NCBI GenBank assembly: GCA_964510885.1
Contig: CAZEDL010000001.1
Location: forward strand, 684-64,683
Reading direction: 5' to 3'
DNA from: an uncultured Gammaproteobacteria bacterium
GTDB lineage: Bacteria > Patescibacteriota > Patescibacteriia > Magasanikbacterales > GWA2-37-8
Length of the DNA: 64,000 nt
Position numbers and translations under genes: made by a program. Positions 24,830 through 64,000 of the stretch are shown piece after piece. Position 1 is the stretch's first letter. Each line of letters opens with the position of its first letter. The notes under the pieces are model-generated. The model saw nothing but the letters and a program-made list of their open reading frames with translations, did no database searches and was not told where the DNA came from.

Positions 24830-24870
24830 GATGAGGAATAAAGAATTACGAATTAAGAATATCGAATGAA

Positions 24871-24908
24871 ATAAAATAATCCCGACTAAATCGGGATTAT
24901 TTTATTTC
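24871..24908. terminator. bidirectional rho-independent terminator
   Basis: ataaaataatcccga-ctaaa-tcgggattattttatttcat. Confidence 0.65.
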
Positions 24909-25047
24909 ATCATTATTTCTTATATTCCAAGAAAGAATAATGGGTTGGGTGGGACGAGGTGGGTGGGGTACGGTCGTCCCGGCCGTGTTGGCTCACTTCC
25001 TTTCCTTGTTGCGCCTGCCTATGGCACGGCCAACAGGATTGCGCTGC

Positions 25048-25557
25048 TTAGTCGCAGCGCCACAAGAACGCTCCGGAGAGCATGCTCTCGCGGAACTGGA
25101 TGCAGCCGCCCGGGAAGCTGGCGATGCAGCGAGGCCCGCTGGTTTGGGGGAAGCAGTTGTGCTCTCGGTGGTACTGGTCGGTGAACCGTAGCACCGTTTT
25201 GGGCTCTGCTGCACCCGGCATACAGCAGTTCAGGTCGTGCTGTATGAGCTTGCCAGTCCAGCGCAATGGCGACTTTGGGTCGTTGGGGCAGTTGTAGCTG
25301 GCCAGCAATGTGTCGATATTCAGCGTGCTGTTACCATCCTCTGAGCTGACGAAGTCGAAGCAGGCATAGTACCGGAGGTTGCAGTCGGCATCCTCGGGAG
25401 GCGGGGGATTGGTTGGGGGCATCCGAGGGACACAGCTTGTAGCCATGTCCTCAGCCGCCGGTGGCTGCGATGCGTCACCTGGGTCGGGGTTTCCCGGGGG
25501 CGGCGTCGGCGCACATGAAAGTGCTAGCCCTACAATGAACGGTATGCTTCTTCGCAT
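25048..25557 (-). CDS. Cys-rich secreted lipoprotein encoded on a high-GC islet
   Basis: Strong SD (aggagg) 7 nt upstream; lipobox MRRSIPFIVGLALS-C; 10 Cys and Pro-rich linker in mature part; about 62% GC versus about 45% flanks. Confidence 0.6.
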   Translation of the reverse strand: MRRSIPFIVGLALSCAPTPPPGNPDPGDASQPPAAEDMATSCVPRMPPTNPPPPEDADCNLRYYACFDFVSSEDGNSTLNIDTLLASYNCPNDPKSPLRWTGKLIQHDLNCCMPGAAEPKTVLRFTDQYHREHNCFPQTSGPRCIASFPGGCIQFRESMLSGAFLWRCD

Positions 25558-25650
25558 GATTTGGTTCCTCCTAGAACCACGAAATTTTTATCATGGTTAA
25601 CTTAAAAATGCAAGATTGAATACTTTACTATATTAGGCTATACTATTGGT

Positions 25651-27897
25651 ATGAGTGAACAATCTTCTGATAAGCCAATCATGCTCGGAGGCGTGAAAGT
25701 TGATCCTGGTGTCAACTTTTTTGGGTTGACCAATTACCGTAATCAGAATCGCCGCTTTGGGATCAAGACTGATGACCGGCGCCGACATATGTATATTGTG
25801 GGCAAGACGGGGATGGGCAAGACCACCATTCTTGAGAACATGGTGCTGAATGACATTTATGGCGGGCATGGGGTGGGGCTGGTTGACCCGCATGGCGACT
25901 TTGCGGAAAAAATTATTGATTTTATTCCACCGCACCGCATTAATGATGTGGTGTATTTTAATCCGTCGGATATCGATTATCCGATCGGATTTAATATTTT
26001 GGAAACAATTAATCCCGAGCAGAAGCATTTGGTGGCGTCGGGCCTGATGGGGGTGTTCAAGAAGATTTGGCCGGATGTGTGGAGTGCCCGTATGGAATAT
26101 ATTTTGAATAATACTATTCTTGCGCTCTTAGATTTTCCGGGTACCACACTCCTTGGCATTAATCGCATGTTGGCTGATGAAGAGTATCGCAAGCGCGTGG
26201 TGGCCAACACTAAGGACCCGGTGATCAAGGCCTATTGGCAAACTGAATTTGCCAATTATACGGAAAAATTCCGTAGTGAAGCGGTGTCGCCTATTCAAAA
26301 TAAAATTGGGCAATTTTTATCGGCTTCGGTGATTCGTAATATTGTGGCGCAGGTCAAATCGCGGATTAATATCCGCGAAATCATGGATACGCAGAAAATT
26401 TTGATCATGAACTTGTCTAAGGGGCGCATTGGTGAAGATAATTCACGTCTGCTGGGCGGTATGCTTATTACCCGTATCCAGCTCGCGGCTATGGAACGGG
26501 TGGATATTCCAGAAAAAGACCGCAAAGATTTCTTTTTATACGTGGATGAGTTTCAAAATTTTGCTACCGAAAGTTTTGCTAATATTTTGTCGGAAGCGCG
26601 TAAATACCGGCTTGATTTGATCATGGCGCATCAGTATATGGAGCAGCTTGATGAGATGGTGCTGGCAGCGGTGATCGGTAATGTGGGCACGATGGTGACG
26701 TTCCGGGTAGGGTCGAGTGATGCCGAGATTTTGGCCAAAGAATTTTCACCCACGTTTGTAGAAGAAGATTTAGTGAATTTGCCAAAATATCATACGTATT
26801 TAAAATTGATGATCGACGGGGTGGCATCGCGGCCTTTCAGCGCTCTCACCTTGCCCCCGATTGGTAGTTCAACCGCCAGTACCGAAAAGGTGGTGCGGGT
26901 ATCGCGCGAACGCTATGCCGTGCCTAAAGATAAAATCGAAGATAAAATCGCGCGCTGGAGTGGTATGGTGGTGATGAGTGATGAAGAGGCGAGTATGATG
27001 GAGGTGGATGAAGATGAAGTGTCATTCAAAGAGCCGGCTAAAAAAGCACCCGAGCAAATGGCAGCCTCTCAGCCTAAGCCAGGGCTGGTATCTTTACAGC
27101 CCTCACCGCGCCCGCCTCAGGCCCCAGTTCAGCAGCCGCGGCAACCTGCAGCTTCTGCGCCCTCAAGTGCTCCGGCCTCCGGCTCTCCAGCAGGAGAACC
27201 TCGCCGGGTGCCAAGCACCAGTCAGCCACGATCGCCACAGGGTAATCAGCCTAGACCTGGCAACACTAATCAGAATATGCCCCGTCCAGCCGGCACTAAT
27301 CGTTCTGATCAGCGATCGGCTCAGAGTGCTCCTGCAGGACGACAGGGAGGGCCAGGTGGTCTGCCTGGTGGTCAAAATTCACAATCAGGAAATTCGGAAT
27401 CACGCAATCGCAATAAAAATAAAAAGAATCGCACATCTTCACCGCCTCCGCCGTCGGCTTCGATATTACTCGGCGATCCGGGTCAGAAGGGGATTTCGCT
27501 TACCAGCATGTTGCCAAAACAACCGGTAGCGGATGATGACGTGGTGCAGGAAAAAGAATTGATCGAAGCTCCGGCTCAGCCGGTGTCAGCTCCGCGTGTT
27601 GATCGGCAGCCGGAGCCAGGGTTTGCTTCGCCCCCGGCCCTTGATTTATCGGCGACTTCCGTTGTTTCAGTTCCTACGTCGCCCTCAGTAGCTGTGGATC
27701 CTGCGCCTATTCAGGTTTCTAAAGAAGTTGAAACTTCCCGTTCACAGCGGTCAGCGCAAACGTCTGCTCCTGAGACTACGAACAAGACTCAGGTGCCGGT
27801 ATCACTGCAATCATCGACTTCCTTAACTCAGGCCCCTGAGCCAACGGTATTAAAACCTGGAGCAGTAGTGACTTTTGATGATACTACTCTTGAATAG
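25651..27897 (+). CDS. soluble type IV coupling protein-like ATPase (VirD4/TraD/TrwB family) with about 340-aa C-terminal P/Q/S-rich disordered tail
   Basis: Walker A VGKTGMGKTT, downstream DPHGDF (T4CP DPKGE motif), Walker B FFLYVDEFQNF, AHQYMEQL motif; no N-terminal TM; aa about 410-748 low-complexity PQPRSPQGNQPRPG... Confidence 0.7.
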   Translation: MSEQSSDKPIMLGGVKVDPGVNFFGLTNYRNQNRRFGIKTDDRRRHMYIVGKTGMGKTTILENMVLNDIYGGHGVGLVDPHGDFAEKIIDFIPPHRINDVVYFNPSDIDYPIGFNILETINPEQKHLVASGLMGVFKKIWPDVWSARMEYILNNTILALLDFPGTTLLGINRMLADEEYRKRVVANTKDPVIKAYWQTEFANYTEKFRSEAVSPIQNKIGQFLSASVIRNIVAQVKSRINIREIMDTQKILIMNLSKGRIGEDNSRLLGGMLITRIQLAAMERVDIPEKDRKDFFLYVDEFQNFATESFANILSEARKYRLDLIMAHQYMEQLDEMVLAAVIGNVGTMVTFRVGSSDAEILAKEFSPTFVEEDLVNLPKYHTYLKLMIDGVASRPFSALTLPPIGSSTASTEKVVRVSRERYAVPKDKIEDKIARWSGMVVMSDEEASMMEVDEDEVSFKEPAKKAPEQMAASQPKPGLVSLQPSPRPPQAPVQQPRQPAASAPSSAPASGSPAGEPRRVPSTSQPRSPQGNQPRPGNTNQNMPRPAGTNRSDQRSAQSAPAGRQGGPGGLPGGQNSQSGNSESRNRNKNKKNRTSSPPPPSASILLGDPGQKGISLTSMLPKQPVADDDVVQEKELIEAPAQPVSAPRVDRQPEPGFASPPALDLSATSVVSVPTSPSVAVDPAPIQVSKEVETSRSQRSAQTSAPETTNKTQVPVSLQSSTSLTQAPEPTVLKPGAVVTFDDTTLE

Positions 27898-27959: not shown

Positions 27960-28015
27960 CGACCTCAGGGCCGGTGATTTAGCGGATGAATACAAAACCA
28001 CCGGCCCTGAGGTCG
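27960..28015. terminator. 17-bp perfect inverted repeat hairpin between convergent genes (GC-rich, no U-tract)
   Basis: cgacctcagggccggtg-N21-caccggccctgaggtcg. Confidence 0.45.
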
Positions 28016-28041
28016 GTGGTTGGTTACTTTAGTTCCAGAAT

Positions 28042-28431
28042 TTATTGTTTGATTTCGGTATAAATATGTCCGCCAAGTTTTGCTATCACCATCACGCTGA
28101 GCACGATGAGCAACCAAATATCGATTGGTTTATGCTGCCACGACTGAGTGATAATAGCCGCCAGAATTGTACCAATCCCAGCCAAAAAAGCGATTCGTCC
28201 GGCCATAAAACTGTGTAGTGCTTCGCGTTCATCGGTAGCCTTTTCATGCCATACAAAACTGGCTAAGACTGCAAATACTACTAGTGTAATCAGACCAAGT
28301 GACATCACTGCCATCGGTGGCATGAAACCGAATGGCTCTAAGAATAAAGTCAGCAAAGCGATCAGAAGTACGGAGACTATAATTTCTTTGGCAAAAGATT
28401 TATTTTTCATACCGCAGAATAAAAATATCAT
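28042..28431 (-). CDS. small 3-4 TM membrane protein co-transcribed with XRE regulator
   Basis: Hydrophobic 129-aa ORF overlapping the 3' end of the XRE gene. Confidence 0.45.
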   Translation of the reverse strand: MIFLFCGMKNKSFAKEIIVSVLLIALLTLFLEPFGFMPPMAVMSLGLITLVVFAVLASFVWHEKATDEREALHSFMAGRIAFLAGIGTILAAIITQSWQHKPIDIWLLIVLSVMVIAKLGGHIYTEIKQ

Positions 28432-28615
28432 CTACATTTTTTTTGAAAAACGTAGCCAATTTAAGAGCCAAGGTAACTGATGGTGTATAATTACCCTTCT
28501 CAATAGCGATGATAGTTTGTCTGGTTACGCCAACTGCTTTTCCCAAATCTTCTTGAGTCATCTCAGCGACAGCGCGTAGTTCATTAACACGATTAGTCAG
28601 GTTTTCTTTCATATG
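28400..28615 (-). CDS. XRE-family helix-turn-helix transcriptional regulator (71 aa)
   Basis: MTQEDLGKAVGVTRQTIIAIEKGNYTPSVTLALKLA is a canonical Cro/C1 HTH; start set at MKENLT. Confidence 0.8.
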   Translation of the reverse strand, partial: HMKENLTNRVNELRAVAEMTQEDLGKAVGVTRQTIIAIEKGNYTPSVTLALKLATFFKKNVDDIFILRYEK

Positions 28616-28856
28616 GACACGACTGTAGCATAGTGATATATAAATGTCAAGAAAAGTATACATGTTGCTGTATTAGGAGCATTGAAGAGCATGTGACGGA
28701 TTTTTTTGGCTATATTTGCTTACTAGACTTGACAAAATTAGGTTATTATGCTAAGATAAGCTGTTTTTAATTCTGCCGCTCTGGCGGCTAGACTCGAACT
28801 TCTCTTGTCAGTGTCATGTATGTGGCCCTAGAAGAATCGGGTCACTAAGTATCTAT

Positions 28857-43309: not shown

Positions 43310-44254
43310 TTAGAGCGCCCGGTCTAACGCCAAACGAGTTAACAGTGCAGCGCACGCTTCGATATAAGGCCGAGCTAATGGTTCGGCAATTGGGTCGCTA
43401 AAGCCGGGGCGGGAATTTAATTCGATTAGTTTGTAACCGTCCGTCGTATTCATAAAATCCATGGAGTATACCGATGGGGAATACTTTTTTAGCTGTTCGC
43501 TGATACTGACAACTAGGGGAGTCACCGCCGTTGGCAGCCGATCAATCGGAAACATATATTCAGTTCCTCCTTGGGCCACATTGGCAAGCAGCGATCCGCT
43601 GCGCGGAGCACGAACCGTTAATTGCACCAAACGATCTGCCGCTGAAATGATACGCAGATCATGCCGCCCTTCGATCAAGCCAGGAATTCCAAGCGAACTA
43701 TCAAAAAATTCCTGCACCAGGGTACCCTCCCAACTAGGATAAATTTCTCGCGGTAATTCTGCAGTTGGCCGGATAAATATGCCATCTCCACCACATAAAA
43801 AATTTTGTTTCACCACTACTCGATCTGATGCCTGTATTTTCCAAGCCGCTACAGTAGCTAAAAATTCTTCATAAGACGATACCAGCTTGGTTCGAGGCGA
43901 CATATCAGCAAATGCCTGTGCGGTGGCCCATTTATCCACGCATAATTCATCAAGGTCTGGGTTATTTACAATCATGCAATCAGTAATGCGAGGAATAGTA
44001 TTTTGATCATCTCGATTAAAAATAACTTTCACAGTAACTGGAGTGACAGGAGCTGAGAGCATGCCGTTTTTTAATTCATATCCGATCGAAAAAGTTCCGG
44101 CACCACGATAGCTATCGGCTCGCACAATAAATGCAGAGACTCCCGCTTTATTTAGCTGCTCTGCCAAGTGGCAGTAGGCATTCCAATACATCAGTTTATC
44201 AAGCGGGTAGCCTTTTGGCTCCGGAGCCGAAAAATAAATCCCAATCGCTGGCAT
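43310..44254 (-). CDS. ATP-grasp fold ligase (RimK/YheCD-like)
   Basis: C-terminal ATP-grasp signature YSMDFMNTTDGYKLIELNSRPGFS, central KQNFLCGGDGIFI; divergent from the 7TM gene. Confidence 0.7.
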   Translation of the reverse strand: MPAIGIYFSAPEPKGYPLDKLMYWNAYCHLAEQLNKAGVSAFIVRADSYRGAGTFSIGYELKNGMLSAPVTPVTVKVIFNRDDQNTIPRITDCMIVNNPDLDELCVDKWATAQAFADMSPRTKLVSSYEEFLATVAAWKIQASDRVVVKQNFLCGGDGIFIRPTAELPREIYPSWEGTLVQEFFDSSLGIPGLIEGRHDLRIISAADRLVQLTVRAPRSGSLLANVAQGGTEYMFPIDRLPTAVTPLVVSISEQLKKYSPSVYSMDFMNTTDGYKLIELNSRPGFSDPIAEPLARPYIEACAALLTRLALDRAL

Positions 44255-44333
44255 AAATAGTAAATTAAAAGTAGTTGTATCTTAACTCCAACAGGAGTAC
44301 CCTATGAGTAGGTTTTATTTTTAAAAAATCGCT

Positions 44334-45884
44334 ATGAAAAATATTTCATACCGCAGATTTTTTCAGATAATCGGCAGTGCAATCATACTTCTACATACTA
44401 CGATACTCCCAAATCCAGTCGGAGCGCAAACGATCATCTCCGCTCCTGGCGAACAATTAGATAAAAATCTACAGATCATCAGTGATGAGGAAGTGGCCCT
44501 GGGAAACAAAACTATCTTTCGGGCCTCAGCGTCGGTTGCCACCACTTCGTCTCTTAATTATACCTGGCAATTTAGCGATGGGCAGAATCAGATCGAGCAT
44601 GGGGTTGAAGCTGCCCATTCCTTTGATACCACGGGTATTCATACCGTTACCGTTCGGATAACTGCCCCCAATATTAGTGAGCAAATTAGTAAGGATATTT
44701 TTGTTTACAATAAAAAAATCTTCCTGATTACTGGTTCCAATCAAACCGGAAATGCAGGCGCCACTTTAGACCAGCTTAAAACAGCCGCCACTGACGAGCA
44801 AAACTCGCTTGAAATTCTAGAAGTAGACACCGACAGCAGCATCTTCGTGACCGAAGATCGCCTGCTTACCCTGTTCGAGCGCAGCGGCCAATCCCTGGCC
44901 GCAGCCGATATGATTATTTTTGATGTGCCCGCTGCTCGTGGCAGCCAAGCCTTTGCCCGGTACATCCACTCGGTATCGGAAGAATTACAAGAAAAATTTA
45001 CTCATCCCTTATACATAAATATCACCCCGCGCGATTTTAATGATCTGCGGTTTTTATTACAGCAGGTTAGCCGGGTTATCCGTCCTGATATGCTGCTGCT
45101 GATGCATCCGCCAGCACTCGAATACTTGGTAACTGCCACCAACTACGGACAATTAACTACGGCACTGAGAGCAACCGACGTGCCGTATCTGCAAATTACA
45201 GCGTCGGATAGCGGGCCGCTCTGGCACGGGTTATGGAAATTATTGTCCGTATTTGTATCACAAGGGATCTCTGTCAGTGTTATTTACCTTATCCTGATCA
45301 TCCCCTTAATTGTTCTCGTTACCGTGTTTGCTCGCCAAGTGCTCGGCATGCCCACGTTTGGAGTGTATGGGCCAGTAATGACCGCCGCCTCGTTTTTAAT
45401 GCTAGGCCTTAAACTCGGCCTCTTGGTATTCTGTTTTGTCATAGTGGTCACCTATTGCGTCAAATTTATTATCAATCGGGCTAAATTGCTGTACATCTCC
45501 AAAGTGGGTCTTAATCTGAGTTTGCTCAGTGCGTCATTTTTATTTTTGATCTGGGTAATTGGTGTAACCCGCAGCTCCATTTCCTTGTCATTGGCTATCT
45601 TTCCCATGCTCCTTATGGCCACCGTGGCCGAGAAATTCATTGCCGCCCAATCTGAAGAAGGGTTTCGTCAAGCCATCTTGGCTGTGATTTCGACCACCAC
45701 CATCATTGTGGTAAGTTTTTTAGCGGTCACCCATATCGCAGTCGTAACCTTTGTTCAGTCCTGGCCTGAAATCATTTTGCTGGCCATTCTGTTCACCTTT
45801 ATTCTCGGTAAATTTACTGGCCTACGCCTTGATGAATATATTCGCTTCCGCACCCTCTTGCGAGATAACGGAACTGAAGAATAA
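44334..45884 (+). CDS. membrane protein: signal peptide, PKD domain, unknown periplasmic domain, C-terminal 7TM bundle (7TM_transglut-like)
   Basis: PKD motif NYTWQFSDGQ...HSF..TGIHTVTVRI; seven predicted TM helices from about aa 290-500. Confidence 0.7.
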   Translation: MKNISYRRFFQIIGSAIILLHTTILPNPVGAQTIISAPGEQLDKNLQIISDEEVALGNKTIFRASASVATTSSLNYTWQFSDGQNQIEHGVEAAHSFDTTGIHTVTVRITAPNISEQISKDIFVYNKKIFLITGSNQTGNAGATLDQLKTAATDEQNSLEILEVDTDSSIFVTEDRLLTLFERSGQSLAAADMIIFDVPAARGSQAFARYIHSVSEELQEKFTHPLYINITPRDFNDLRFLLQQVSRVIRPDMLLLMHPPALEYLVTATNYGQLTTALRATDVPYLQITASDSGPLWHGLWKLLSVFVSQGISVSVIYLILIIPLIVLVTVFARQVLGMPTFGVYGPVMTAASFLMLGLKLGLLVFCFVIVVTYCVKFIINRAKLLYISKVGLNLSLLSASFLFLIWVIGVTRSSISLSLAIFPMLLMATVAEKFIAAQSEEGFRQAILAVISTTTIIVVSFLAVTHIAVVTFVQSWPEIILLAILFTFILGKFTGLRLDEYIRFRTLLRDNGTEE

Positions 45885-45926
45885 GACATGTCACGGAGCG
45901 TAACATGTCCTGAAATTGCGTCGCTC

Positions 45927-45958
45927 GACCCTAGTAACTGTAAACAGTTACTAGGGTC
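45927..45958 (+). promoter_or_regulatory. 14-bp perfect stem hairpin between 7TM gene and ATP-grasp/QEGLA gene (attenuator-like, no U-tract)
   Basis: gaccctagtaactg-taaa-cagttactagggtc. Confidence 0.5.
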
Positions 45959-45976
45959 TCACTAGCATTATAACTT

Positions 45977-48319
45977 ATGGGATGGCTTGATTCGTCTCGA
46001 AAAATTTTAGGCATGAACGCGCGTAATTTACTCTATATTGATGAGTATAATAGCCGCGCGCATAAACGCTTTGCCGATGACAAACTGTTTACTAAACAGT
46101 ATTTATCATCGCGCGGTATTGGCGTTGCCAAGCTCTATGGAGTAATTAAAACCCCGGGTGAACTGCGGGTTTTTAATCCCGATTCGCTACCCAAGACCTT
46201 TGTAATCAAGCCCAACCGCGGCTTTGGTGGCGAAGGAATTATTGTCATTGACGATCGTCAAGGGGGTATTTTTATTGATGCCGCCGGCGAGCGCCATACC
46301 TGGCAAGAATTATCGCTGCACATGGTGTCTATTCTCGAAGGAAAATACTCAATTTCAGGTATCCGTGATCAGGCCTTGCTTGAAGAACGTCTGCTGCCCG
46401 CTGAATTTCTGAGCCCCTATATCACCAAAGGTTTGCCAGATATTCGCATTATTGTGTTTAAGTTAGTACCGGTTATTGCCATGTTACGCCTGCCGACCCG
46501 AGATTCGCACGGCAAAGCTAATTTACATATGGGCGCCCTCGGGGTAGGCCTTGATATCGCCACGGGGAGAGCCAGCTTCGCCGTATCAAAAGGACAATTT
46601 GTCACTGCCTTGCCGAGCGGCCTGCCGGTAAAAGATATAAAAATGAAACAATGGGATGAGGTGCTGATGACGGCTATACAAGCCGCGCATCTCAGCAAGA
46701 TCGGATTTGTAGCGGTAGATATTGTTGCCACGTCAACCGGCGTAAAAATCCTTGAGCTTAATGCGCGCCCCGGCTTGTCAGTTCAGATAGCTAATCAAAT
46801 CCCGTTGAGGCAGCGCCTGGAACAGATCAGTGATAGTAAAGTCAATACCCCCGAACAAGGCTTATCTATTTGTCGTGCTTTATTTGGCAGTGGTCGTACT
46901 ACCACTGGGAAGCCCGCTGCCGCCAAAACTATTATCTCGCCCTATGAAGATGTGCTCTTATTGTCAGAACCCGAACAGATGATCCGGGCCCGGATCGACC
47001 CAGCCGCTGAAAAAAATACTATCTCTACGCGCTATTTAGGAGCCAAAACCAACGAACATATCACAGTAAAATTAAAAGGCAAGCGGTTGGTGTTACCAGT
47101 AGCAGTCACAGAATTTTCAACTGACACAGCCTATGACCTGATCGTTGCCGGCAAATTTCTAACTGATTTTTTAATTGATCCGAGCTTGAAACTAGAAGAG
47201 AGACAGATAGTGAGCGATCTACATCACGTCACTTCAGAGCGTAACGAGCGAATCCTTCGCAGTATTGATAAGCGGTTGGGTGTTATTGACCGATCCTTAC
47301 ATGTACTCAGAGCACTCCGTCCACTGAATGCGAAACAGGCCAAAGAGATGTTTTTCGCCAATCCAGACAGCTCACCTATTTTTGCCTATGCTCCAGCTCC
47401 CGCTAATCTTCCCAAATTAGAAAAAGAACTGTTTACGTTGCCGTCGGTGCCCGATCATCCGCTTCGTCTCTTGTACACCAACAAAATTGCCGCCCTAAAA
47501 ACAGCCATTGAGTTAATAAAATATCATGATAGTGAGCGACTGACAGAGTTGTCGAGCACGTTATTTGGCCCGATCAGTGCCGAGATCTACCAGGCGGCCT
47601 GCCGGTCGTATGAAGAAACCATCATTCACGAAGATCACAGTGAATTATTAACCACCTCAAATATCGTCAAATACCTGGAGGAGTTTTTTGCCAATCGCAA
47701 TCTGACTCAGTGGAAAGTGATGGTGAGCGAGCACTGCACCGCCGATATAGCCGTCTCTAAAAAACGCAGTGTGATTCTCAAAGCCGGCGTGTCCTTTACT
47801 GCCAATCGGCTACGCAGTGTGATCATGCATGAAATCATGACCCACGCCTATCGGTTTGAAAACGGTGAACGGCAGAAGTATGGGTTGTTTGCACTCGGCA
47901 CAGCCGGGTATCTGGCCACCGAAGAAGGCTTGGCCATTTATAATCAGAAAAAATTAGGCGTCCCACTCGGGGAACGTGACGTAGTGCCACCCTTACATTG
48001 TATTGCAGCGTATCTCGGACTAGAGCATTCTTTTGCCGAAGTATTCGCGCTTCTCAAAACCATCTATGGCGTCAGCGACGAATTAGCCTGGAAGGTATGT
48101 CTGCGCTCGAAACGTGGCCTCACCAATACAGCTGCGCCAGTCGTATGCATGCGCGATACGGCCTATTACCGTGGCTATCGCGCCGTAAAAAAGTATATCG
48201 ATGCAACCGGTGAAAGTGGTTTAAAGCAGCTCTACATAGGTAAGATCAGTTTGGAAGATATACCATCATTAGAAAATTTGTCGCTCGAAGCGCCTACGCT
48301 CTTGCCAAATTTTTCATAA
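45977..48319 (+). CDS. fusion protein: N-terminal alpha-L-glutamate-ligase-like (sugar-transfer-associated) ATP-grasp plus C-terminal DUF1704/QEGLA-motif domain with HExxH
   Basis: N-terminal KILGMNARNLLYI..., ATP-grasp core VKILELNARPGLSV; C-terminal HEIMTHAYRFENG (HExxH) then TEEGLAIYNQ (QEGLA-like); 780 aa. Confidence 0.75.
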   Translation: MGWLDSSRKILGMNARNLLYIDEYNSRAHKRFADDKLFTKQYLSSRGIGVAKLYGVIKTPGELRVFNPDSLPKTFVIKPNRGFGGEGIIVIDDRQGGIFIDAAGERHTWQELSLHMVSILEGKYSISGIRDQALLEERLLPAEFLSPYITKGLPDIRIIVFKLVPVIAMLRLPTRDSHGKANLHMGALGVGLDIATGRASFAVSKGQFVTALPSGLPVKDIKMKQWDEVLMTAIQAAHLSKIGFVAVDIVATSTGVKILELNARPGLSVQIANQIPLRQRLEQISDSKVNTPEQGLSICRALFGSGRTTTGKPAAAKTIISPYEDVLLLSEPEQMIRARIDPAAEKNTISTRYLGAKTNEHITVKLKGKRLVLPVAVTEFSTDTAYDLIVAGKFLTDFLIDPSLKLEERQIVSDLHHVTSERNERILRSIDKRLGVIDRSLHVLRALRPLNAKQAKEMFFANPDSSPIFAYAPAPANLPKLEKELFTLPSVPDHPLRLLYTNKIAALKTAIELIKYHDSERLTELSSTLFGPISAEIYQAACRSYEETIIHEDHSELLTTSNIVKYLEEFFANRNLTQWKVMVSEHCTADIAVSKKRSVILKAGVSFTANRLRSVIMHEIMTHAYRFENGERQKYGLFALGTAGYLATEEGLAIYNQKKLGVPLGERDVVPPLHCIAAYLGLEHSFAEVFALLKTIYGVSDELAWKVCLRSKRGLTNTAAPVVCMRDTAYYRGYRAVKKYIDATGESGLKQLYIGKISLEDIPSLENLSLEAPTLLPNFS

Positions 48320-57339: not shown

Positions 57340-58008
57340 TTAGGTTGGCTGCGCTCCTTGATTGGCATCAGAATTTTTTTTCTGGACCAGCAGCCAGCCC
57401 AGCATATTTTTCTTATTCGTTCCGTCCGGACGTTTGGCTGCCATAGTAGCTGGTTCGCTTCCTTGCCGGAGAACGGTCCAGCCCTCGTAAAACGATTCCA
57501 TCTCGCCTGGTGAGAAAAAGGCCATCTTTTTTTCTGTATCTGCATCATAGGCATCCCCCTCGTCAATGAACCATGAAATAACATTTAAACCCTCAGGAAC
57601 GGTGTGTTTTTGCATTTCTTGAATCATAACTTTAGCCTCATCTTTTTGTATATGCTGCAAAACGAAAGAAGAGATTAGAACATCATAATCACGCGTCCAC
57701 GGTCTCTTTAGTATGTCTGCAAGACCAGTTTCCATACTTATGCTATTTTTATCCGTCCACTGTTCCAGCTTGGCAATTCCCACGCCTGATACATCGACTG
57801 CTCGAACGTCGAATCCCTTGTCCGCCAAAAAACGAGCATGCCTCCCATCTCCAGCTCCAAGATCTAGAACACTGCCAGATTGTTTATATGCTAAAATCGA
57901 TTTGACCACCTGCTCTGGTTCACCATAATTAAATATGGGTCTTTCGCTTTGAACATAAAGCTTGTCATAGTAACTTCCAATCCCAACATTTTTATTTTCC
58001 GATGACAT
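57340..58008 (-). CDS. class I SAM-dependent methyltransferase (small-molecule type, TehB-like)
   Basis: Motif I VLDLGAGDGRHARFLADKGFDVRAVDVS, motif II DVLISSFVLQHI; start set at internal ATG (MSSENKNVG). Confidence 0.7.
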   Translation of the reverse strand: MSSENKNVGIGSYYDKLYVQSERPIFNYGEPEQVVKSILAYKQSGSVLDLGAGDGRHARFLADKGFDVRAVDVSGVGIAKLEQWTDKNSISMETGLADILKRPWTRDYDVLISSFVLQHIQKDEAKVMIQEMQKHTVPEGLNVISWFIDEGDAYDADTEKKMAFFSPGEMESFYEGWTVLRQGSEPATMAAKRPDGTNKKNMLGWLLVQKKNSDANQGAQPT

Positions 58009-58197
58009 AGATATACTGGTTAATTCCGAAATTTTACCATTGCGCTTGAATTTCATCCAGTTATTACCAGCGTAGCTTAAATTTTTGGGCAAGCGGTGCC
58101 AGTAATACCCTTATAATTTGTAAAATTAAGTTGACAAAATAGGATTTTTCTGCTAAGTACAGTGTGCCGCTATAGTAGCGGAGATCTGTGAGGAATC

Positions 58198-60138
58198 ATG
58201 CAAAACGCTCTGTTTCTGGTTGTGTTTAGTGCGTTGATGCTGATGGGCCAGTCAGTTTCGGCGAATTATAAAGGGTACGGCGCGGACAGTGTCGAGTCCG
58301 ACGTGCTAGCCAAGTTTGCCCCCCAGCCGCTGCCGGGCGCACTGAGTCGCGACATCCAGTCGCGCATGGATGTCCTCACGCCAACAATGGGAGCTGTCTC
58401 TCCCGACGGCAGGCATCTGTGCACTTCATGGAACATCACCGGCACATGGCAGGTATGGTGCTTGGATCGGCCGAACTCCTTTCCACGCCAGCTGACGGGC
58501 GGTGACGACTACACCGGCTTCAGCGGGTTCACCCCCGATGGAAAAACCATCCTCATCTCCCGGGATCGGAAAGGTGAAGAAAACCAAGGCCTGTACTACG
58601 TACCCCTCATGGGTGGAAAACTAGAGGTCATCCAGCACAAGGCTGGTGTGCAGACCTACTTAGAGCGCATCGGAAATGATGGGCTGATATACTTCAAGGC
58701 CAACGACCGCAGGCCTGGCAGCCGCACCATATACACCTTCGACTTCAAGACGAAGGAGATTAAGGTGTGGTTCGATCGGGACGGGCTCTGGAGTATCCAA
58801 GGGGAGCGACAGGGTAAATTCCTGATCGCCAAGTCCACAGGGTTCCTCTGGAGGGAGTACTACGAGTTCGACCCGAGCAACGAAACCTTGATTCCGCTTC
58901 TCGGCCAAGGCGAGAACGAGGAATACAAGATGGCCTACGCCGCCCAGCCTGGTAAGTTCATCGTACTCACCAACAAGTTCGGCAATTTCAAGCGACTCTA
59001 CCGTTGGAGTCAGTCCGACGGTTTCTGGCCACTCACCTCCAATAGCAGCTTCGACGTCTCGGACTTCACCGTCGACCGGGAGCTTAGAAGGATCCTATAC
59101 ACGACCAACGAAAAAGGTTTTACTAGGGTCGCCGGGCTGAATGCAAAGACCTATAAGCTGCTTGAAATGCCAAAGTTTCCCCACGATAATCCTGATCACG
59201 TCTACAACGGCAGCAACAGCTGGGGCGGTCGGTACACCACCTTCGGAGTCGGAGTCCCGACCGGACCGGACCTAAAGTACGTCTACGACTGGAAGGGGAA
59301 GAAGCTGACACAGTGGTTCAAGCCAAGCGCTCCAGAGATAGATATAAAAGGCTTCGTCCCCGCCAAACTAGAGTACTACTCCGCCGCTGACGGCACGCAA
59401 ATCCCTATGCTGGTGCGGAGACCCAAGGCGTGTAATGGCACCAAGCTCTGTCCCGTGATAGTGGAGTTTCATGGAGGGCCAGAAGATCAGGCAACGCCTG
59501 GCTTCAAACCTTACACACAAATGTTCGTGGATCACGGCTTCATCTATGTGGAGCCGAATGTTCGCGGTAGCGAAGGGTACGGAAAGGAATGGATTCGCAG
59601 TGATGATGGAGTGAAACGCCTCCAGGTGATCACTGACATTCGCGACGCCGCAGTGTGGATCAAAGAACACTGGAGGGTCAACGGCCAGAGTCCGAAGGTC
59701 GGTGTCACAGGGAGCAGCTATGGAGGGTATTCAACGCTCATTGCCATGACCATGTTTGCCGGGGTCTACGACGCGGGCGTGTCTGAGGTTGGCATGAGCA
59801 ACCTGGTCACCTTCCTTGAGAATACTGCACCATACCGCCGCAGTCTCCGTGTTGCCGAGTATGGCGATCCGCAAAAGGATCGTGAAGCCCTCCTCAAACT
59901 CTCTCCAATCAGCCACATCGACCACCTCAAGTCGCCCCTGCTCATGATTCAAGGGGCCAGCGATCCTCGCGTGCCCGTAGGCGAGGCGATCCAGATGTAT
60001 GAGGCGGCCGTAAGCAGGGGAGTAGTCACAAAACTGATCATCTTCCCCGATGAGGGGCACGGGCTCAGCAAGAGGGGTAACCAGGTCCTCGGCCAAGGAC
60101 ACACACTCCTCTGGTTCAAAAAGTACCTAGCTGATTAA
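58198..60138 (+). CDS. secreted S9-family serine peptidase (beta-propeller plus prolyl oligopeptidase-type alpha/beta hydrolase)
   Basis: Signal peptide; catalytic GSSYGGYST (GxSxGG), DPRVPVGE (Asp), PDEGHGL (His); about 57% GC versus about 35-45% flanks. Confidence 0.85.
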   Translation: MQNALFLVVFSALMLMGQSVSANYKGYGADSVESDVLAKFAPQPLPGALSRDIQSRMDVLTPTMGAVSPDGRHLCTSWNITGTWQVWCLDRPNSFPRQLTGGDDYTGFSGFTPDGKTILISRDRKGEENQGLYYVPLMGGKLEVIQHKAGVQTYLERIGNDGLIYFKANDRRPGSRTIYTFDFKTKEIKVWFDRDGLWSIQGERQGKFLIAKSTGFLWREYYEFDPSNETLIPLLGQGENEEYKMAYAAQPGKFIVLTNKFGNFKRLYRWSQSDGFWPLTSNSSFDVSDFTVDRELRRILYTTNEKGFTRVAGLNAKTYKLLEMPKFPHDNPDHVYNGSNSWGGRYTTFGVGVPTGPDLKYVYDWKGKKLTQWFKPSAPEIDIKGFVPAKLEYYSAADGTQIPMLVRRPKACNGTKLCPVIVEFHGGPEDQATPGFKPYTQMFVDHGFIYVEPNVRGSEGYGKEWIRSDDGVKRLQVITDIRDAAVWIKEHWRVNGQSPKVGVTGSSYGGYSTLIAMTMFAGVYDAGVSEVGMSNLVTFLENTAPYRRSLRVAEYGDPQKDREALLKLSPISHIDHLKSPLLMIQGASDPRVPVGEAIQMYEAAVSRGVVTKLIIFPDEGHGLSKRGNQVLGQGHTLLWFKKYLAD

Positions 60139-60277
60139 CCGCATCGTTGTTCCATGAGGGGGTGAACGAACGAAAACGGGAAAACGACGTGGGTGCCGTC
60201 GGAGCGTTCGCTCAATCCAATGCACCTATCCCTATTAAATTTTCTTTAACAAGCGAAGGCTGTTTGATAAGGAAAAA

Positions 60278-60305
60278 TAACTCTCAAAAAGAGTTGTTTT
60301 TATTT
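60278..60305 (+). terminator. weak rho-independent terminator after the S9 peptidase gene
   Basis: aactctcaaaaagagtt-gttttt. Confidence 0.45.
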
Positions 60306-60394
60306 TAAAATTATAACTAAAATAGCGCCTAAAATTAGGCACTATTTGAATAAAATTTTAGGTGCTCTGATTGATACGTGACGCTAGAACCTAT

Positions 60395-61060
60395 TTATAA
60401 TTTTCTATAACCCAGAATTACATACTTGGGTATAGCGGAATCCGCAGACAATAAAACCGGAGCAGAGTATTCCTCAAACACTCTTGTGTGCCCATACTGA
60501 GAAAATATCCTGTCGTATTCCTCGGTGTTTCTTCTGTAAATAGGAAATACGAAATCAGTTCCAGCAATTTTTAGAGTATCAGTAACATTTCGATTGTTTA
60601 GGTGGGCCGGGTTGTGGTTTGCAAAAATTAGAAAGCCTCCACTGCTTAAACTTTTTGCTAGTTGCGCAATTTCGTCAGTATCAATAAATTGCAAAACCAT
60701 TCCGGAAACTATCAAATCAAATTTCCCATTTTTATCGGATGCTTCTCTTGCTGTTTCACCATTTCCTACTAACAGCTTAATAGTATTAGGCAAGTTTTCT
60801 TGGCCGATACTGATCATGTCTGTAGAAATATCAATGCCGGTAACATCAAAACCAAGTTTCTGGAGATCTAAACAAAACATCCCGGTGCCACAGCCAAAAT
60901 CTAATGCCTTTAAGCCGCTAGCATGATGGATATTTTGTTTTATAAAATTGATAAAAATAGGCCATACGCCTTCTTTTCTCTCATCAGAACTTGAGCTCTT
61001 CTGTGAAGTAAAGTAATTAAATCTACCGCTTAGCTTGTTCCATTGATCAGCAAGATTCAT
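60395..61060 (-). CDS. class I SAM-dependent methyltransferase
   Basis: KALDFGCGTGMFCLDLQKLGFDVTGIDIS (motif I), DLIVSGMVLQFI (motif II). Confidence 0.7.
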   Translation of the reverse strand: MNLADQWNKLSGRFNYFTSQKSSSSDERKEGVWPIFINFIKQNIHHASGLKALDFGCGTGMFCLDLQKLGFDVTGIDISTDMISIGQENLPNTIKLLVGNGETAREASDKNGKFDLIVSGMVLQFIDTDEIAQLAKSLSSGGFLIFANHNPAHLNNRNVTDTLKIAGTDFVFPIYRRNTEEYDRIFSQYGHTRVFEEYSAPVLLSADSAIPKYVILGYRKL

Positions 61061-61266
61061 AGATATTTTAACAAGAAAATTTTCTAATTTATATCATATA
61101 TTTTAAATTAACCCAAAATATAAAAAATAATGGCTAAATTTAGCCATTATTTTTAAGAGGTTCGAACTTCGTCTATTAGCTCGCCTGGCGGGACAGCTTT
61201 CGAACTTTTGATTGGAGGGGTGCTATTCTTGCCCCAGAGACCCTTATTAATCATGCTCAACAACTA

Positions 61267-61965
61267 TTAGACCTCCAAACTTGCTAGACGCGGCCGTCTC
61301 TGAAAAATCCTTAAAGGAGTATATATGTACATTTCTTCATTATTATTCTCTATGTTGGCAAAGCCAAAACGAATAGTAAATGATATTTTTTTATCCGAAG
61401 GTTTTCTTCTCTGTAAGTTAGAAAAGTCGTAAGGGCCAAGAGTGGGGCCGTTATGATCGCTCGCTAGACGCATGCCGTCTCCTACAAATGGGGCAGAATG
61501 TACAGTCTTTATATCAAGTGGTAAATGATGTAAAAAGAAATCAGCAAATAAACGAGTTTTATCATTGAACAGTTTGTCCTTAAAAGGAAAAATCATAGCT
61601 GTTCCATACCACCTTCGCGTTTGTCCTGGTGTACCAACGGGTGTAGTATGTTTAGCTGGTAATCCGAGGACTGTAAAATAATGAAACGGTTGATTGCTAT
61701 TTTTTTCTAAAAAATCCCAAACTGGATTTGCATCAAAAAATAGATGTTCTTTTTTACCGGACAGGTGCAATCGAAAGTCTGGAGGTATAGAAAGATGGTT
61801 AAATTCTTCAATAATCTCCGGAGGCTTATTTGAGGATATTAAATGAGTTTTTGCCGAAAGAGCTATCATCGGGAAAGTGTTGGTTACCTCAATATCCAAC
61901 ATTTTTGGGCTGGGAAAATTTTGATCTTTAAAAAATGCTATCATTCCATTGGGAAGCTTTGCCAT
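61267..61965 (-). CDS. hypothetical 232-aa protein
   Basis: ORF only; His/Phe/Pro-rich; family not recognised (YqcI/YcgG-like considered, unsupported). Confidence 0.5.
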   Translation of the reverse strand: MAKLPNGMIAFFKDQNFPSPKMLDIEVTNTFPMIALSAKTHLISSNKPPEIIEEFNHLSIPPDFRLHLSGKKEHLFFDANPVWDFLEKNSNQPFHYFTVLGLPAKHTTPVGTPGQTRRWYGTAMIFPFKDKLFNDKTRLFADFFLHHLPLDIKTVHSAPFVGDGMRLASDHNGPTLGPYDFSNLQRRKPSDKKISFTIRFGFANIENNNEEMYIYTPLRIFQRRPRLASLEV

Positions 61966-62010
61966 AACTATTTCTTTCTATAAAAGGTGAGAAAAAACAA
62001 GAAGTAAATA

Positions 62011-64000
62011 TTATTCTAAGCTTCTTTTCATTAGCTCAATTTGCTCGTCAGTCCTCCTTCTCTCGTGGGTAATACGCTCATCTAAATAGTCTTCGTACTC
62101 TCTAACAAAGTATCTAACTTCCTTACTCGGGTCTTTTTTAAATTTTTGAATAGACTGCTTTTTCTCCTGAAATGCTCTTACAAAACCATCTTCTCCAGAA
62201 ACTACCCCTGTCTGTGACAATGAACCAAAAATACGATCTCTGACCTCATTGTATTCCTTAGTTCCAAAGTATTTTTGAATCAAAGCTTTAACAACACCCC
62301 ATAAAAATTCTCCGCCCTCATATTTGTTTATTATAGACAAAACTATATTGCGACTCTCTTTTGTTCCCTTCTTGATAAGTGATATTAGTGATTTTTCTAG
62401 TACAGGGCTAAAATTAGAAAAAATTTTTTCAAAAAGATCGCTTGCTTCCCACCAGAGCAAATGTTTATATTTTTTGCCTCCGTCTCTATACCATTTAAGA
62501 AGTAAAGGTATTATAATTTCCTCTTGTTGCTTTAGAACACCGCCCAATTCATGGAAATTAAACGGCACACTATCATAAGGATCGTATATATCCCTTTTCC
62601 TTTTTGATTTGATTTCAACTCTTTTGTGGAAAAAATTAATTACTTTTTCTGGGCTTTTTTCAGCAATTGGTTTTAGAATTGCCTCCGCATGATAGTCGAT
62701 ACTAGGAAATAATAGTAAACCAGACAAAATTATATCAAAATCATTTTCTGCAAGATCAGGAATAATAGAATCGCCTTTAAACCATAGATTATTAATCCAC
62801 CAGAAGTTTTTATGTCTTGTTAGCTCCTTAATCGTTTCTAAAAAAGCAGATTTAAGATGTTTGTATTTAGGATAATTATGTAAAATTGAGCGTAGAATAT
62901 TATTAAGAGCAGGTATGTCCTTTAGTTTTTTTGCTTTATCTAATATTTTTCGAAATAGAACGTCATCAATATCATCAATAGGTACAAAGATAAAGGCGCA
63001 GATGTTAAGATATTTTCCCTCTTCTACCCACTGACCAATTATTTCCTTTGCTTTTTCTTGAAAATTACTTTTCCAAATACCTGTAATTAGGTTTATTAAA
63101 AAATCCGCTAGTTCTTTCTCATTTTCTTCCACTAACCGTATAGCCAAACTTGGTTTTTCTTGGGCTAGTTTTACTAGGAATGATTCAAAATAACCATAGC
63201 CACCCGACTCTGTGAGCGTTCGATTTTTAACGACGGATAGAATTTTCTCTTGCCATTCTTTAAAATTAGTTTCTGATATATTTGCGATAAATTCTTCAAT
63301 CTTTTTTAAGCGAGTTTCTCGGTCTTTGTTAAAATCGTGATCGGGATCAAGACGGCCATCATATCCAACAAAAATTCTAAACATGCCATAGTCAGTATTA
63401 GATCGAATAGCTTCTTCAAGTTCATTTATTTTGTTTGGTGGTATCTTGGTAAATCTTCTGTTGAGCCAGACTTTTTGCTCTTCAATATCTTGAATAATTT
63501 CATTTTCTGCATTCGGTAATATAGACAAATAAAAATCTACGATTGAATTTACGTCATTTAATATCATTTGCTCCATGTCCTCGCCGTATTCATTATTAAA
63601 AGGGGGGTGAGTTGCTTGCTGTAAAACTTGGAGAACCTTAATTTTTTGATCAAGTTCAACAGAAATAAGGTAGATTTTTTTTAATAACAAAATACTGCGG
63701 TTTCGCAAATTTTTGAGTTCCTCTGAAACACGAAGTGAGCCAGAATGTAAAGTAAATGTTTTGTAGTCGGGCCTGGAGCGCCCTTCAAAAGAAGGTGTGA
63801 GTAATTCTTTTGTAGTAACAAATACTACGGGCGAATTTTTAACCAATTGTTCATTGCTCCAGCTTTCAAGCTCTGCCAGTATTAATTGTTGTATTTTAAA
63901 TTCTAGTTGTCGGAGTGCAAATAGGTTATACTGCGATAAATGCTCAAAACTTTTTAAAACTTCAGATCTAACAGCTTCATTGTTGTACCATAAATATTTA
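62011..64000 (-). CDS. large Lys/Trp-rich alpha-helical-repeat-like hypothetical protein, 5'-partial (reading frame open to the window edge)
   Basis: 611-aa ORF from a TTG at 63846; the same frame has no stop through 64000, so the N-terminus probably lies outside the window; about 33% GC. Confidence 0.6.
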   Translation of the reverse strand, partial: KYLWYNNEAVRSEVLKSFEHLSQYNLFALRQLEFKIQQLILAELESWSNEQLVKNSPVVFVTTKELLTPSFEGRSRPDYKTFTLHSGSLRVSEELKNLRNRSILLLKKIYLISVELDQKIKVLQVLQQATHPPFNNEYGEDMEQMILNDVNSIVDFYLSILPNAENEIIQDIEEQKVWLNRRFTKIPPNKINELEEAIRSNTDYGMFRIFVGYDGRLDPDHDFNKDRETRLKKIEEFIANISETNFKEWQEKILSVVKNRTLTESGGYGYFESFLVKLAQEKPSLAIRLVEENEKELADFLINLITGIWKSNFQEKAKEIIGQWVEEGKYLNICAFIFVPIDDIDDVLFRKILDKAKKLKDIPALNNILRSILHNYPKYKHLKSAFLETIKELTRHKNFWWINNLWFKGDSIIPDLAENDFDIILSGLLLFPSIDYHAEAILKPIAEKSPEKVINFFHKRVEIKSKRKRDIYDPYDSVPFNFHELGGVLKQQEEIIIPLLLKWYRDGGKKYKHLLWWEASDLFEKIFSNFSPVLEKSLISLIKKGTKESRNIVLSIINKYEGGEFLWGVVKALIQKYFGTKEYNEVRDRIFGSLSQTGVVSGEDGFVRAFQEKKQSIQKFKKDPSKEVRYFVREYEDYLDERITHERRRTDEQIELMKRSLE

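Follow-up and report, generated by a model that had tools for sequence, protein, structure and literature searches.

A highly conserved type IV coupling protein-like ATPase fixed at one chromosomal locus in Patescibacteria

The DNA analysed here, 64 kb of a 400-kb contig and hereafter called the window, is chromosomal DNA from Patescibacteria (candidate phyla radiation, CPR), Magasanikbacteria group, and carries a complete open reading frame (ORF) for an ATPase that resembles the type IV coupling proteins (T4CPs) of conjugation systems (Table 1). The NCBI-called start lies 10 codons further in, at 25681, giving a 738-aa product (P0001, 100% identical). The protein consists of a nucleoside triphosphatase (NTPase) core and a long Pro-rich tail. 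All four motifs from which the initial annotation had read a T4CP-like core are found, namely Walker A (GKTGMGKT, aa 51-58), DPHGD (aa 79-83; DPHGDF at 79), Walker B (FFLYVDEF, aa 294-301; FLYVDEFQNF from 295) and AHQYMEQL (from 326), together with the motif ARKYRLDLIMAHQ at aa 316-328 and an all-alpha insertion at approximately aa 120-250; conservation places the core end near aa 439 (…KIARWSGM). The Walker A, DPxGD, Walker B and (A|G)xQ motifs align with those of TrwB. No transmembrane helix is found in the ATPase, in agreement with the initial annotation on its N-terminus, as the highest 19-residue Kyte-Doolittle mean is 1.52 and sits at aa 336, inside the beta-core.

Profile and structure searches agree on the identity of the core. 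Of the three hidden Markov model (HMM) profiles that had been proposed for checking, PF10412 (TrwB_AAD_bind) scores 46.8 bits over aa 41-374, which covers profile positions 12-328 of 387 (cut-off 20.5), and PF12696 (TraG-D_C) passes at 22.8 bits against 22, whereas PF02534 has no match on the 748-aa protein. DUF87 is a borderline pass (25.3 bits, cut-off 23.2), FtsK_SpoIIIE (PF01580) reaches 14.1 bits against 24 and covers the P-loop only, and the NCBIfam T4CP models all stay far below their cut-offs, the best being SXT_TraD (37.9 vs 366) and conju_CD1115 (35.7 vs 250). In sequence searches of the PDB, the sole real matches are TrwB and DotL, both with the single sequence and with a 40-sequence family profile (1.4e-7 and 6.9e-5, respectively), and the profile search returns no FtsK, HerA or VirB4 chain at E <= 0.01. 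The homolog P0140, in which a second module is fused ahead of the core, shows 56% identity to the ATPase in the combined alignment A3, or 59% if the core alone is compared; its AlphaFold2 (AF2) model has a mean predicted local distance difference test (pLDDT) score of 88 and a helical insertion. Foldseek places TrwB first for this model (E ~4e-12; target-normalised TM-score 0.59-0.64), with Cagbeta (0.49-0.55), DotL (0.52) and HerA (0.49-0.50) at lower ranks. Given the TrwB and DotL matches, the top rank of TrwB in fold and the FtsK score below cut-off, the core is T4CP-like rather than FtsK-like, and HerA, with its borderline DUF87 score, fits it less well; membership of one of those two families, which had been named as what would overturn the assignment, is not borne out. 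As modelled, the core adopts the T4CP fold, all-alpha insertion included, and its Walker A, Walker B and sensor region are intact.

The family is large and its core is conserved to an unusual degree. A homolog search returned at least 8,000 candidates, and an exhaustive search of 50%-identity representatives gave 6,812 clusters at E <= 1e-30, with members in Magasanik-, Uhr-, Falkow- and Jacksonbacteria, Paceibacter and Minisyncoccota. In 95 homologs, more than 200 of the 440 positions of the core never vary. When conservation was compared on identical locus pairs, the core stood at ~74% in loci with common downstream genes, against 64% for S13, 67% for S11, 54% for S4, 55% for AlaRS and 50% for MnmA; at 83% in loci of the window's subtype, against 75% for DnaB, 60% for RecR and 51% for MraY; and at 71% in loci of a second subtype, described below, against 51% for SecD/F and 42% for DUF8128. 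In 91-100% of pairs the core was the better-conserved protein, and it evolves more slowly than ribosomal proteins. To our knowledge, conjugative coupling proteins do not show such conservation, which makes this the most surprising result of the analysis.

Comparison of 80 genome loci (L001-L080) and 80 metagenome loci shows that the gene has a constant place. Both subtypes have the order ATPase-(Zn ribbon)-MnmA-AlaRS-S13-S11-S4-RpoA-L17, in which RpoA and L17 were identified by eye, and this common downstream order makes the two subtypes positional orthologs. Upstream, the ATPase genes linked to a gene for the membrane module DUF8128 follow SecD-SecF-DUF8128, and those without it follow MraY-DUF192-RecR-DnaB-736aa membrane protein-HIT-(NUDIX). 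In the window itself the downstream synteny is lost, while the core keeps 80% median identity and is monophyletic with loci that retain it. In both subtypes, the window's lost downstream synteny apart, the ATPase gene is fixed at one chromosomal locus, upstream of mnmA-alaS-rpsM-rpsK-rpsD-rpoA-rplQ, and is vertically inherited. No gene for VirB4 or another part of a type IV secretion system (T4SS) and no relaxase gene occurs among the conserved neighbours in the 80 + 80 loci, and a scan of ~50 ORFs in the window found no VirB4, VirB6, relaxase, ComEC, pilus or other T4SS or competence gene, as had been noted for VirB4, VirB6 and relaxase from the start. Many records among L001-L080 bear the title 'uncultured Gammaproteobacteria bacterium' but appear to be mislabelled, given the Patescibacteria-like gene content and synteny. 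The GC skew of the window is positive from 1 to ~27 kb whatever the gene strand and negative thereafter (sign change ~27000), and the cumulative skew peaks at the 3' end of the ATPase gene, where the downstream synteny of the relatives is lost; this points to either a replication terminus or an inversion breakpoint.

The initial annotation had called the ATPase an orphan, a description that is not supported as it stands, since the gene has positional orthologs directly behind, or fused to, the membrane-anchored DUF8128. The DUF8128 module (PF26449) has a single transmembrane helix, positively charged residues behind it and an alpha/beta domain of ~400 aa, which by the positive-inside rule is predicted to be cytoplasmic. 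A DUF8128 gene of ~470 aa lies directly upstream on the same strand in 33 of the 80 genome loci, which are those with core identity of at most ~75%; in P0140, P0141, P0165 and others the module is fused ahead of the ATPase as its N-terminal ~400 aa, and the stand-alone gene product matches the N-part of fused P0141 with a BLASTP E of 2e-60. At least 2,617 DUF8128 members were found, all from Patescibacteria and all annotated as hypothetical; no paper on DUF8128 or PF26449 was found in the literature, and the DUF8128 profile gives 0 matches in the PDB even at E <= 10. A likeness to the VirB4 N-domain is not claimed, as Foldseek yields only long, poorly fitting alignments (TM-score 0.23-0.31). 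DUF8128 is absent from the window (HMM search of all six-frame ORFs) and from the 47 closest loci. In a neighbour-joining tree the 48 tips of the DUF8128-less subtype, the window among them, form one monophyletic group inside a DUF8128-linked grade. Judged from these sequences, the DUF8128-less clade has lost both DUF8128 and an accompanying zinc finger from the locus, and because the ATPase is the positional ortholog of genes behind or fused to DUF8128, its lone soluble form is a derived state of a membrane-tethered two-part system.

The two parts can also be found separately. Among the metagenome DUF8128 loci, 72 were evaluable; DUF8128 is adjacent or fused to the ATPase in 48, the ATPase is elsewhere in the locus in 4, and no ATPase occurs within the fetched flanks in the remaining 20. 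Of these last, 7 show SecD-SecF-DUF8128 followed by unrelated genes, as expected of a remnant, and ~9 have an envelope-biosynthesis context behind a sigma/HARE-HTH gene. In L100, L112, L150, L153-L155 and L162, the genes are RfbA-like, glycosyltransferase family 2 (GT2), sigma/HARE-HTH, DUF8128, GT4 and a ~850-aa protein, with no ATPase nearby; the fused homolog of L082 is likewise preceded by a sigma70_r4/HARE-HTH gene. Since unlinked DUF8128 genes exist in other genomes, a trans-acting partner is possible, and by analogy it is plausible that the window's genome encodes a DUF8128 partner elsewhere. Within the window, the gene for a 736-aa membrane protein, two to four genes upstream of the ATPase on the same strand, was considered for the missing DUF8128 and ruled out (BLASTP E > 1). 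It has no Pfam or NCBIfam match and is at most a candidate member of the ATPase system.

A third module is a zinc finger of the PF23477 zf_Tbcl_2/TIGR04272 family. In 22 close loci (e.g. L031:11985-12317), a 110-aa ORF with two CxxC-x17-CxxC fingers lies directly downstream of the ATPase, and the same finger is fused right behind the core in P0281 (aa 458-493), P0288 (aa 461-495) and many other orthologs. The zf_Tbcl_2 domain binds zinc in Methanosarcina small proteins (PMC12704099). In two DUF8128-linked loci (L058, L064) the tail ends in a similar Cys motif. By tblastn the window has no such finger, and the ATPase protein contains no Cys at all; the ORF at 28148-28480 was tested as a zinc-ribbon gene and is not one.

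The tail (aa 441-748: P 16%, S 14%, A 10%, Q 9%) has the Pro/Gln/Ser/Ala-rich composition that had been assigned to it; its length is ~310 aa, not ~340, as the core runs to ~439. Most tail columns have a conservation of <= 0.3, pLDDT stays under 50 for the greater part of the tail, and its length among orthologs ranges from 55 to 470 aa. Four conserved islands stand out (Table 1). In island 3, G614, S616 and L617 are each conserved in at least 90%, and the island is confined to part of the DUF8128-less clade plus locus L059. Its QKGISL segment was considered as a beta-clamp-binding or ParB-like peptide, an idea that was dropped, since invariance is seen at G, S and L but not at Q. Island 4, with the consensus [LI]xPGxV[VI]K[LIF][DE] (LxPGxVVK[LF]D), has a pLDDT of 81 within an otherwise poor model and is also present in DUF8128-linked and fused orthologs, so that it is probably ancestral. 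Conserved islands in an unconserved Pro-rich matrix point to a flexible tether with docking motifs rather than to the bulk condensate module that had been suggested for a low-complexity tail.

The ATPase gene stands as its own unit, with a divergent gene upstream and a convergent gene downstream beyond a hairpin. The 'good promoter' first placed at 25611-25640 proved to be weak evidence, and its position is corrected in Table 1: the match is 9/12 amid a near-chance number of sites (9 found around it vs 5.5 +/- 2.4 expected), and as its -10 element ends 6 nt ahead of the 25651 ATG, the mRNA would be leaderless. The divergent ORF is lineage-specific, with a GC content of 0.525 and no homolog in any fetched locus. 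Downstream, a convergent pair (28042-28663, minus strand), a small membrane ORF and an XRE-type helix-turn-helix regulator, occupies the place of the Zn-ribbon-MnmA-AlaRS genes of the relatives.

Table 1. Features of the ATPase gene and its surroundings (coordinates within the window)
Feature	Position	Strand	Basis or remark
T4CP-like ATPase ORF	25651..27897	+	Complete, 748 aa, ATG start
Conserved NTPase core, aa ~20-439	25708..26967	+	Pfam, PDB sequence matches, invariant positions, homolog fold
Disordered Pro/Ser/Ala/Gln-rich tail, aa 440-748	26968..27894	+	Composition, column conservation, pLDDT
Tail island 1, acidic patch VMSDEEASMMEVDEDEVSFK, aa 441-460	26971..27030	+	Conservation 0.39-0.45
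Tail island 2, polybasic patch NSESRNRNKNKKNR, aa 581-594	27391..27432	+	KRKRKRKK in relatives
Tail island 3, motif ILLGDPGQKGISLTSM, aa 601-620	27451..27510	+	Short form ILLGDPGQKGISL
Tail island 4, C-terminal motif PTVLKPGAVVTFD, aa 731-743	27841..27879	+	
Promoter-like pair TTGAAT-N17-TATACT	25616..25644	+	Sigma-70-like, 9/12 positions; not above chance alone
GC-rich hairpin between convergent genes, likely bidirectional terminator	27996..28021	.	
Divergent neighbour ORF, 169 aa, Cys-rich, lipoprotein-type signal peptide MRRSIPFIVGLALSC	25048..25557	-	
Polytopic membrane protein, 736 aa	20845..23055	+	Syntenic in 34 loci, DUF8128-less clade only

The wider surroundings are housekeeping in character, including RecJ, LepA, MurJ, MraZ/W/Y, RecR, DnaB, HIT, SNase, an exonuclease, a DEAD-box helicase, QueC and DinB/IMS, and neither the Rfam nor the tRNA scan of the window gave a match. 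A perfect hairpin with a 20-bp stem (24866-24910) directly follows the exonuclease gene and is scored as a terminator on both strands. At 43310-48319 lies a three-gene cassette encoding a RimK-like ATP-grasp protein, a PKD + 7TM_transglut membrane protein and an ATPgrasp_ST + MATCAP fusion, which looks like a modification system of the peptide-ligase or transglutaminase type. The composition jumps within 58000-64000, from a GC content of 0.54 at 58-60 kb (a Peptidase_S9 gene) to 0.33-0.38 at 60-64 kb, and this may mark horizontally acquired DNA.

Relatives outside the CPR are found in phages. The phrog_5156 profile matches both the core (3.9e-63) and DUF8128 (1.5e-15), and gp156 of Bacillus phage G is a DUF8128-ATPase fusion, with a core 29% identical and an N-part that hhalign relates to DUF8128 at 97% probability; the two-module layout is thus the one seen in the present family, in a phage-encoded form. 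In locus L083 (phage G 87975-97198), the gp156 gene adjoins that of gp155, a VirB4-class ATPase (P-loop_TraG, AAA_10). SPO1-like phages (SP8, L084) have a remoter relative, a 'VirD4-like' protein whose gene precedes a Replic_Relax gene; the N-part of the SP8 protein is not detectable as DUF8128 (hhalign probability 6%). Lytic Bacillus phages therefore carry T4SS-like ATPase modules, and these neighbours indicate that the wider family keeps T4SS-type or DNA-processing company, whereas the chromosomal orthologs of the CPR do not.

The literature touches on the family from another side. According to the available text of Quinonero-Coronel et al. 2025 (PMC12102498), 2,918 of 3,035 Patescibacteria genomes (96%) contain a total of 5,713 VirD4-type homologs, while VirB4 occurs in 2,417 (80%) and only 148 of the 5,713 lie near virB4; the present gene is almost certainly one of these matches. 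The same text states that in Southlakia the T4SS genes are essential while t4cp is not, and it describes exaptation as something that 'cannot be ruled out'. Neither VirD4 nor T4CP is named in the main text of Wang et al. 2023, so the statement on Southlakia is second-hand from PMC12102498. DUF8128, the zinc finger, the tail motifs, the conserved locus and the degree of conservation are mentioned neither in the available part of PMC12102498 nor in a review of T4SS nomenclature (PMC12857230). The architecture and the level of conservation thus appear to be undescribed; the kind of protein, a T4CP-like ATPase, is already known and not categorically new.

The explanation that we favour, with a confidence only a little above even, is that the ATPase is a housekeeping motor of Patescibacteria, T4SS-independent or only loosely T4SS-linked, that has been exapted from a conjugative T4CP; it ranks above a conventional coupling protein, then a role in DNA uptake or at the Sec site, and then one of the FtsK or HerA type. 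The ATPase would be a subunit of a vertically inherited chromosomal machine, and its core, by analogy with TrwB, VirD4 and FtsK, would form a ring-shaped (hexameric) NTPase that tracks along or pumps nucleic acid, most likely DNA. DUF8128 would serve as the membrane tether, whether in cis or in trans. The Pro-rich tail may act as a flexible tether whose polybasic patch, joined in relatives by the zinc finger, captures nucleic acid, and the short motifs, above all the C-terminal LxPGxVVK[LF]D, may dock protein partners. The machine probably serves something other than classical conjugation, which could be T4SS-independent DNA handling or the delivery of substrates to the chromosomal T4SS of Patescibacteria. 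The reported occurrence of VirD4-type homologs in more genomes than VirB4, with few near virB4, supports T4SS independence, and the VirB4-class and Replic_Relax neighbours of the phage relatives support a link to DNA. A bolder version, rather unlikely in our judgement, would make the DUF8128-anchored ATPase a Patescibacteria-wide T4SS-independent motor under extreme purifying selection, such as the missing engine that moves nucleic acid in or out at the contact between epibiont and host, or at ComEC; the tail motifs would wire this motor to conserved partners, and in the window's clade it would be uncoupled from its anchor genetically and perhaps physically.

Several points weigh against the housekeeping motor or parts of it. 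The conserved gene order beside secDF and ribosomal genes may lack functional meaning, and the neighbour-joining tree carries no bootstrap support. The AF2 model of the ATPase itself is poor (mean pLDDT 55 with a 95-sequence alignment), with core strands mis-modelled as helices, so that the fold evidence comes from P0140 only, and the nucleic-acid substrate is presumed from homology alone. The T4CP counts in the available text of PMC12102498 cover all VirD4-type matches, approximately two per genome, and thus extend beyond the present family. In addition, the Southlakia T4CP homolog may be an ortholog, in which case 'housekeeping' would overstate the importance of the ATPase in co-culture.

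The strongest rival, possible yet doubtful, is that the protein is the conventional coupling protein of the chromosomal Patescibacteria T4SS (its VirB4 forming a clade within the mating pair formation class MPF-FATA), encoded away from virB4 and delivering protein or DNA. The T4CP fold and motifs, the VirB4-class neighbour in phage G and the reported presence of VirB4 in most Patescibacteria genomes, with T4CP genes often far from virB4 (PMC12102498, available text), are what it would lead one to expect; full-length VirB4/TrwK also aligns, poorly, along the whole fused model, and 6.5 kb downstream of one fused DUF8128-ATPase gene, at L081:18010-21525, a T4SS_pilin domain is found in a protein of 2,363 aa. 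However, the same source reports T4CP homologs in more genomes than VirB4, hardly ever beside it and dispensable in Southlakia where the T4SS genes are not, and the conservation of the core exceeds that of ribosomal proteins, unlike T4SS parts. The ATPase also lacks a transmembrane domain, the anchor of its relatives is DUF8128 instead of the two-helix anchor of T4CPs, and no NCBIfam T4CP model reaches its cut-off.

A second rival, which we consider unlikely, places a membrane-associated motor for DNA uptake at ComEC in substitution for ComFA, or a protein or RNA mover at the Sec/SecDF site. The competence core of the CPR has been listed as ComEC, DprA and ComFC without ComFA (PMC10633639), and the zinc finger of the relatives, the polybasic patch of the tail and the order SecD-SecF-DUF8128-ATPase would suit such a role, as would the dispensability of both com genes and t4cp in Southlakia co-culture (the latter second-hand, from the available text of PMC12102498). 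Against this stand the absence of com genes from the conserved neighbours, a conservation far above that expected for a dispensable competence factor, and the loss of the SecDF adjacency in the window's clade with the core unchanged. Least probable of all, and quite improbable, is a HerA- or FtsK-like DNA translocase for segregation or repair, acting with nearby nucleases or at the replication terminus: the DUF87/HerA score just above cut-off, a HerA TM-score of ~0.5, SNase and 3'-5' exonuclease genes 1-2 kb upstream, the position at the GC-skew sign change and an FtsK-like Pro/Gln-rich linker speak for it, but TrwB fits the fold better, the FtsK and PDB profile searches fail as described above, neither a HAS barrel nor NurA was found, the SNase and exonuclease neighbours recur in only 12 and 8 loci, respectively, and FtsK itself has been reported in at least one CPR bacterium, TM7x.

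Among known systems, the ATPase shares the P-loop nucleotide-binding domain with an all-alpha insertion with TrwB of R388, VirD4/Cagbeta, TraD/TraG and DotL, and a C-terminal docking tail is typical of TraD and DotL also. It differs from T4CPs in lacking the N-terminal two-helix membrane anchor and any linkage to relaxase or VirB4, in being chromosomal, apparently in one copy at the locus, vertically inherited and hyper-conserved, and in having relatives that are anchored by DUF8128 and carry the CxxC-x17-CxxC zinc finger. FtsK/SpoIIIE and HerA belong to the same superfamily of ring translocases with an additional strand and catalytic glutamate (ASCE), and FtsK too has a long Pro/Gln-rich linker; in the ATPase, however, the order is reversed, with the motor first and the linker last, and there is no gamma domain.

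One consequence is a warning that not every VirD4 HMM match in CPR genomes is a T4SS component. For the motor, the comparison provides a parts list, comprising the ATPase core, the DUF8128 anchor, the zinc finger and the tether that carries four short motifs, as well as natural variants in which the parts are fused, split or uncoupled and which make the question directly testable. Patescibacteria account for much of bacterial diversity, and their life on hosts is largely obscure. A conjugation-derived motor that is fixed at one locus in several CPR lineages, and held there more tightly than ribosomal proteins, very likely does something central and lineage-specific.

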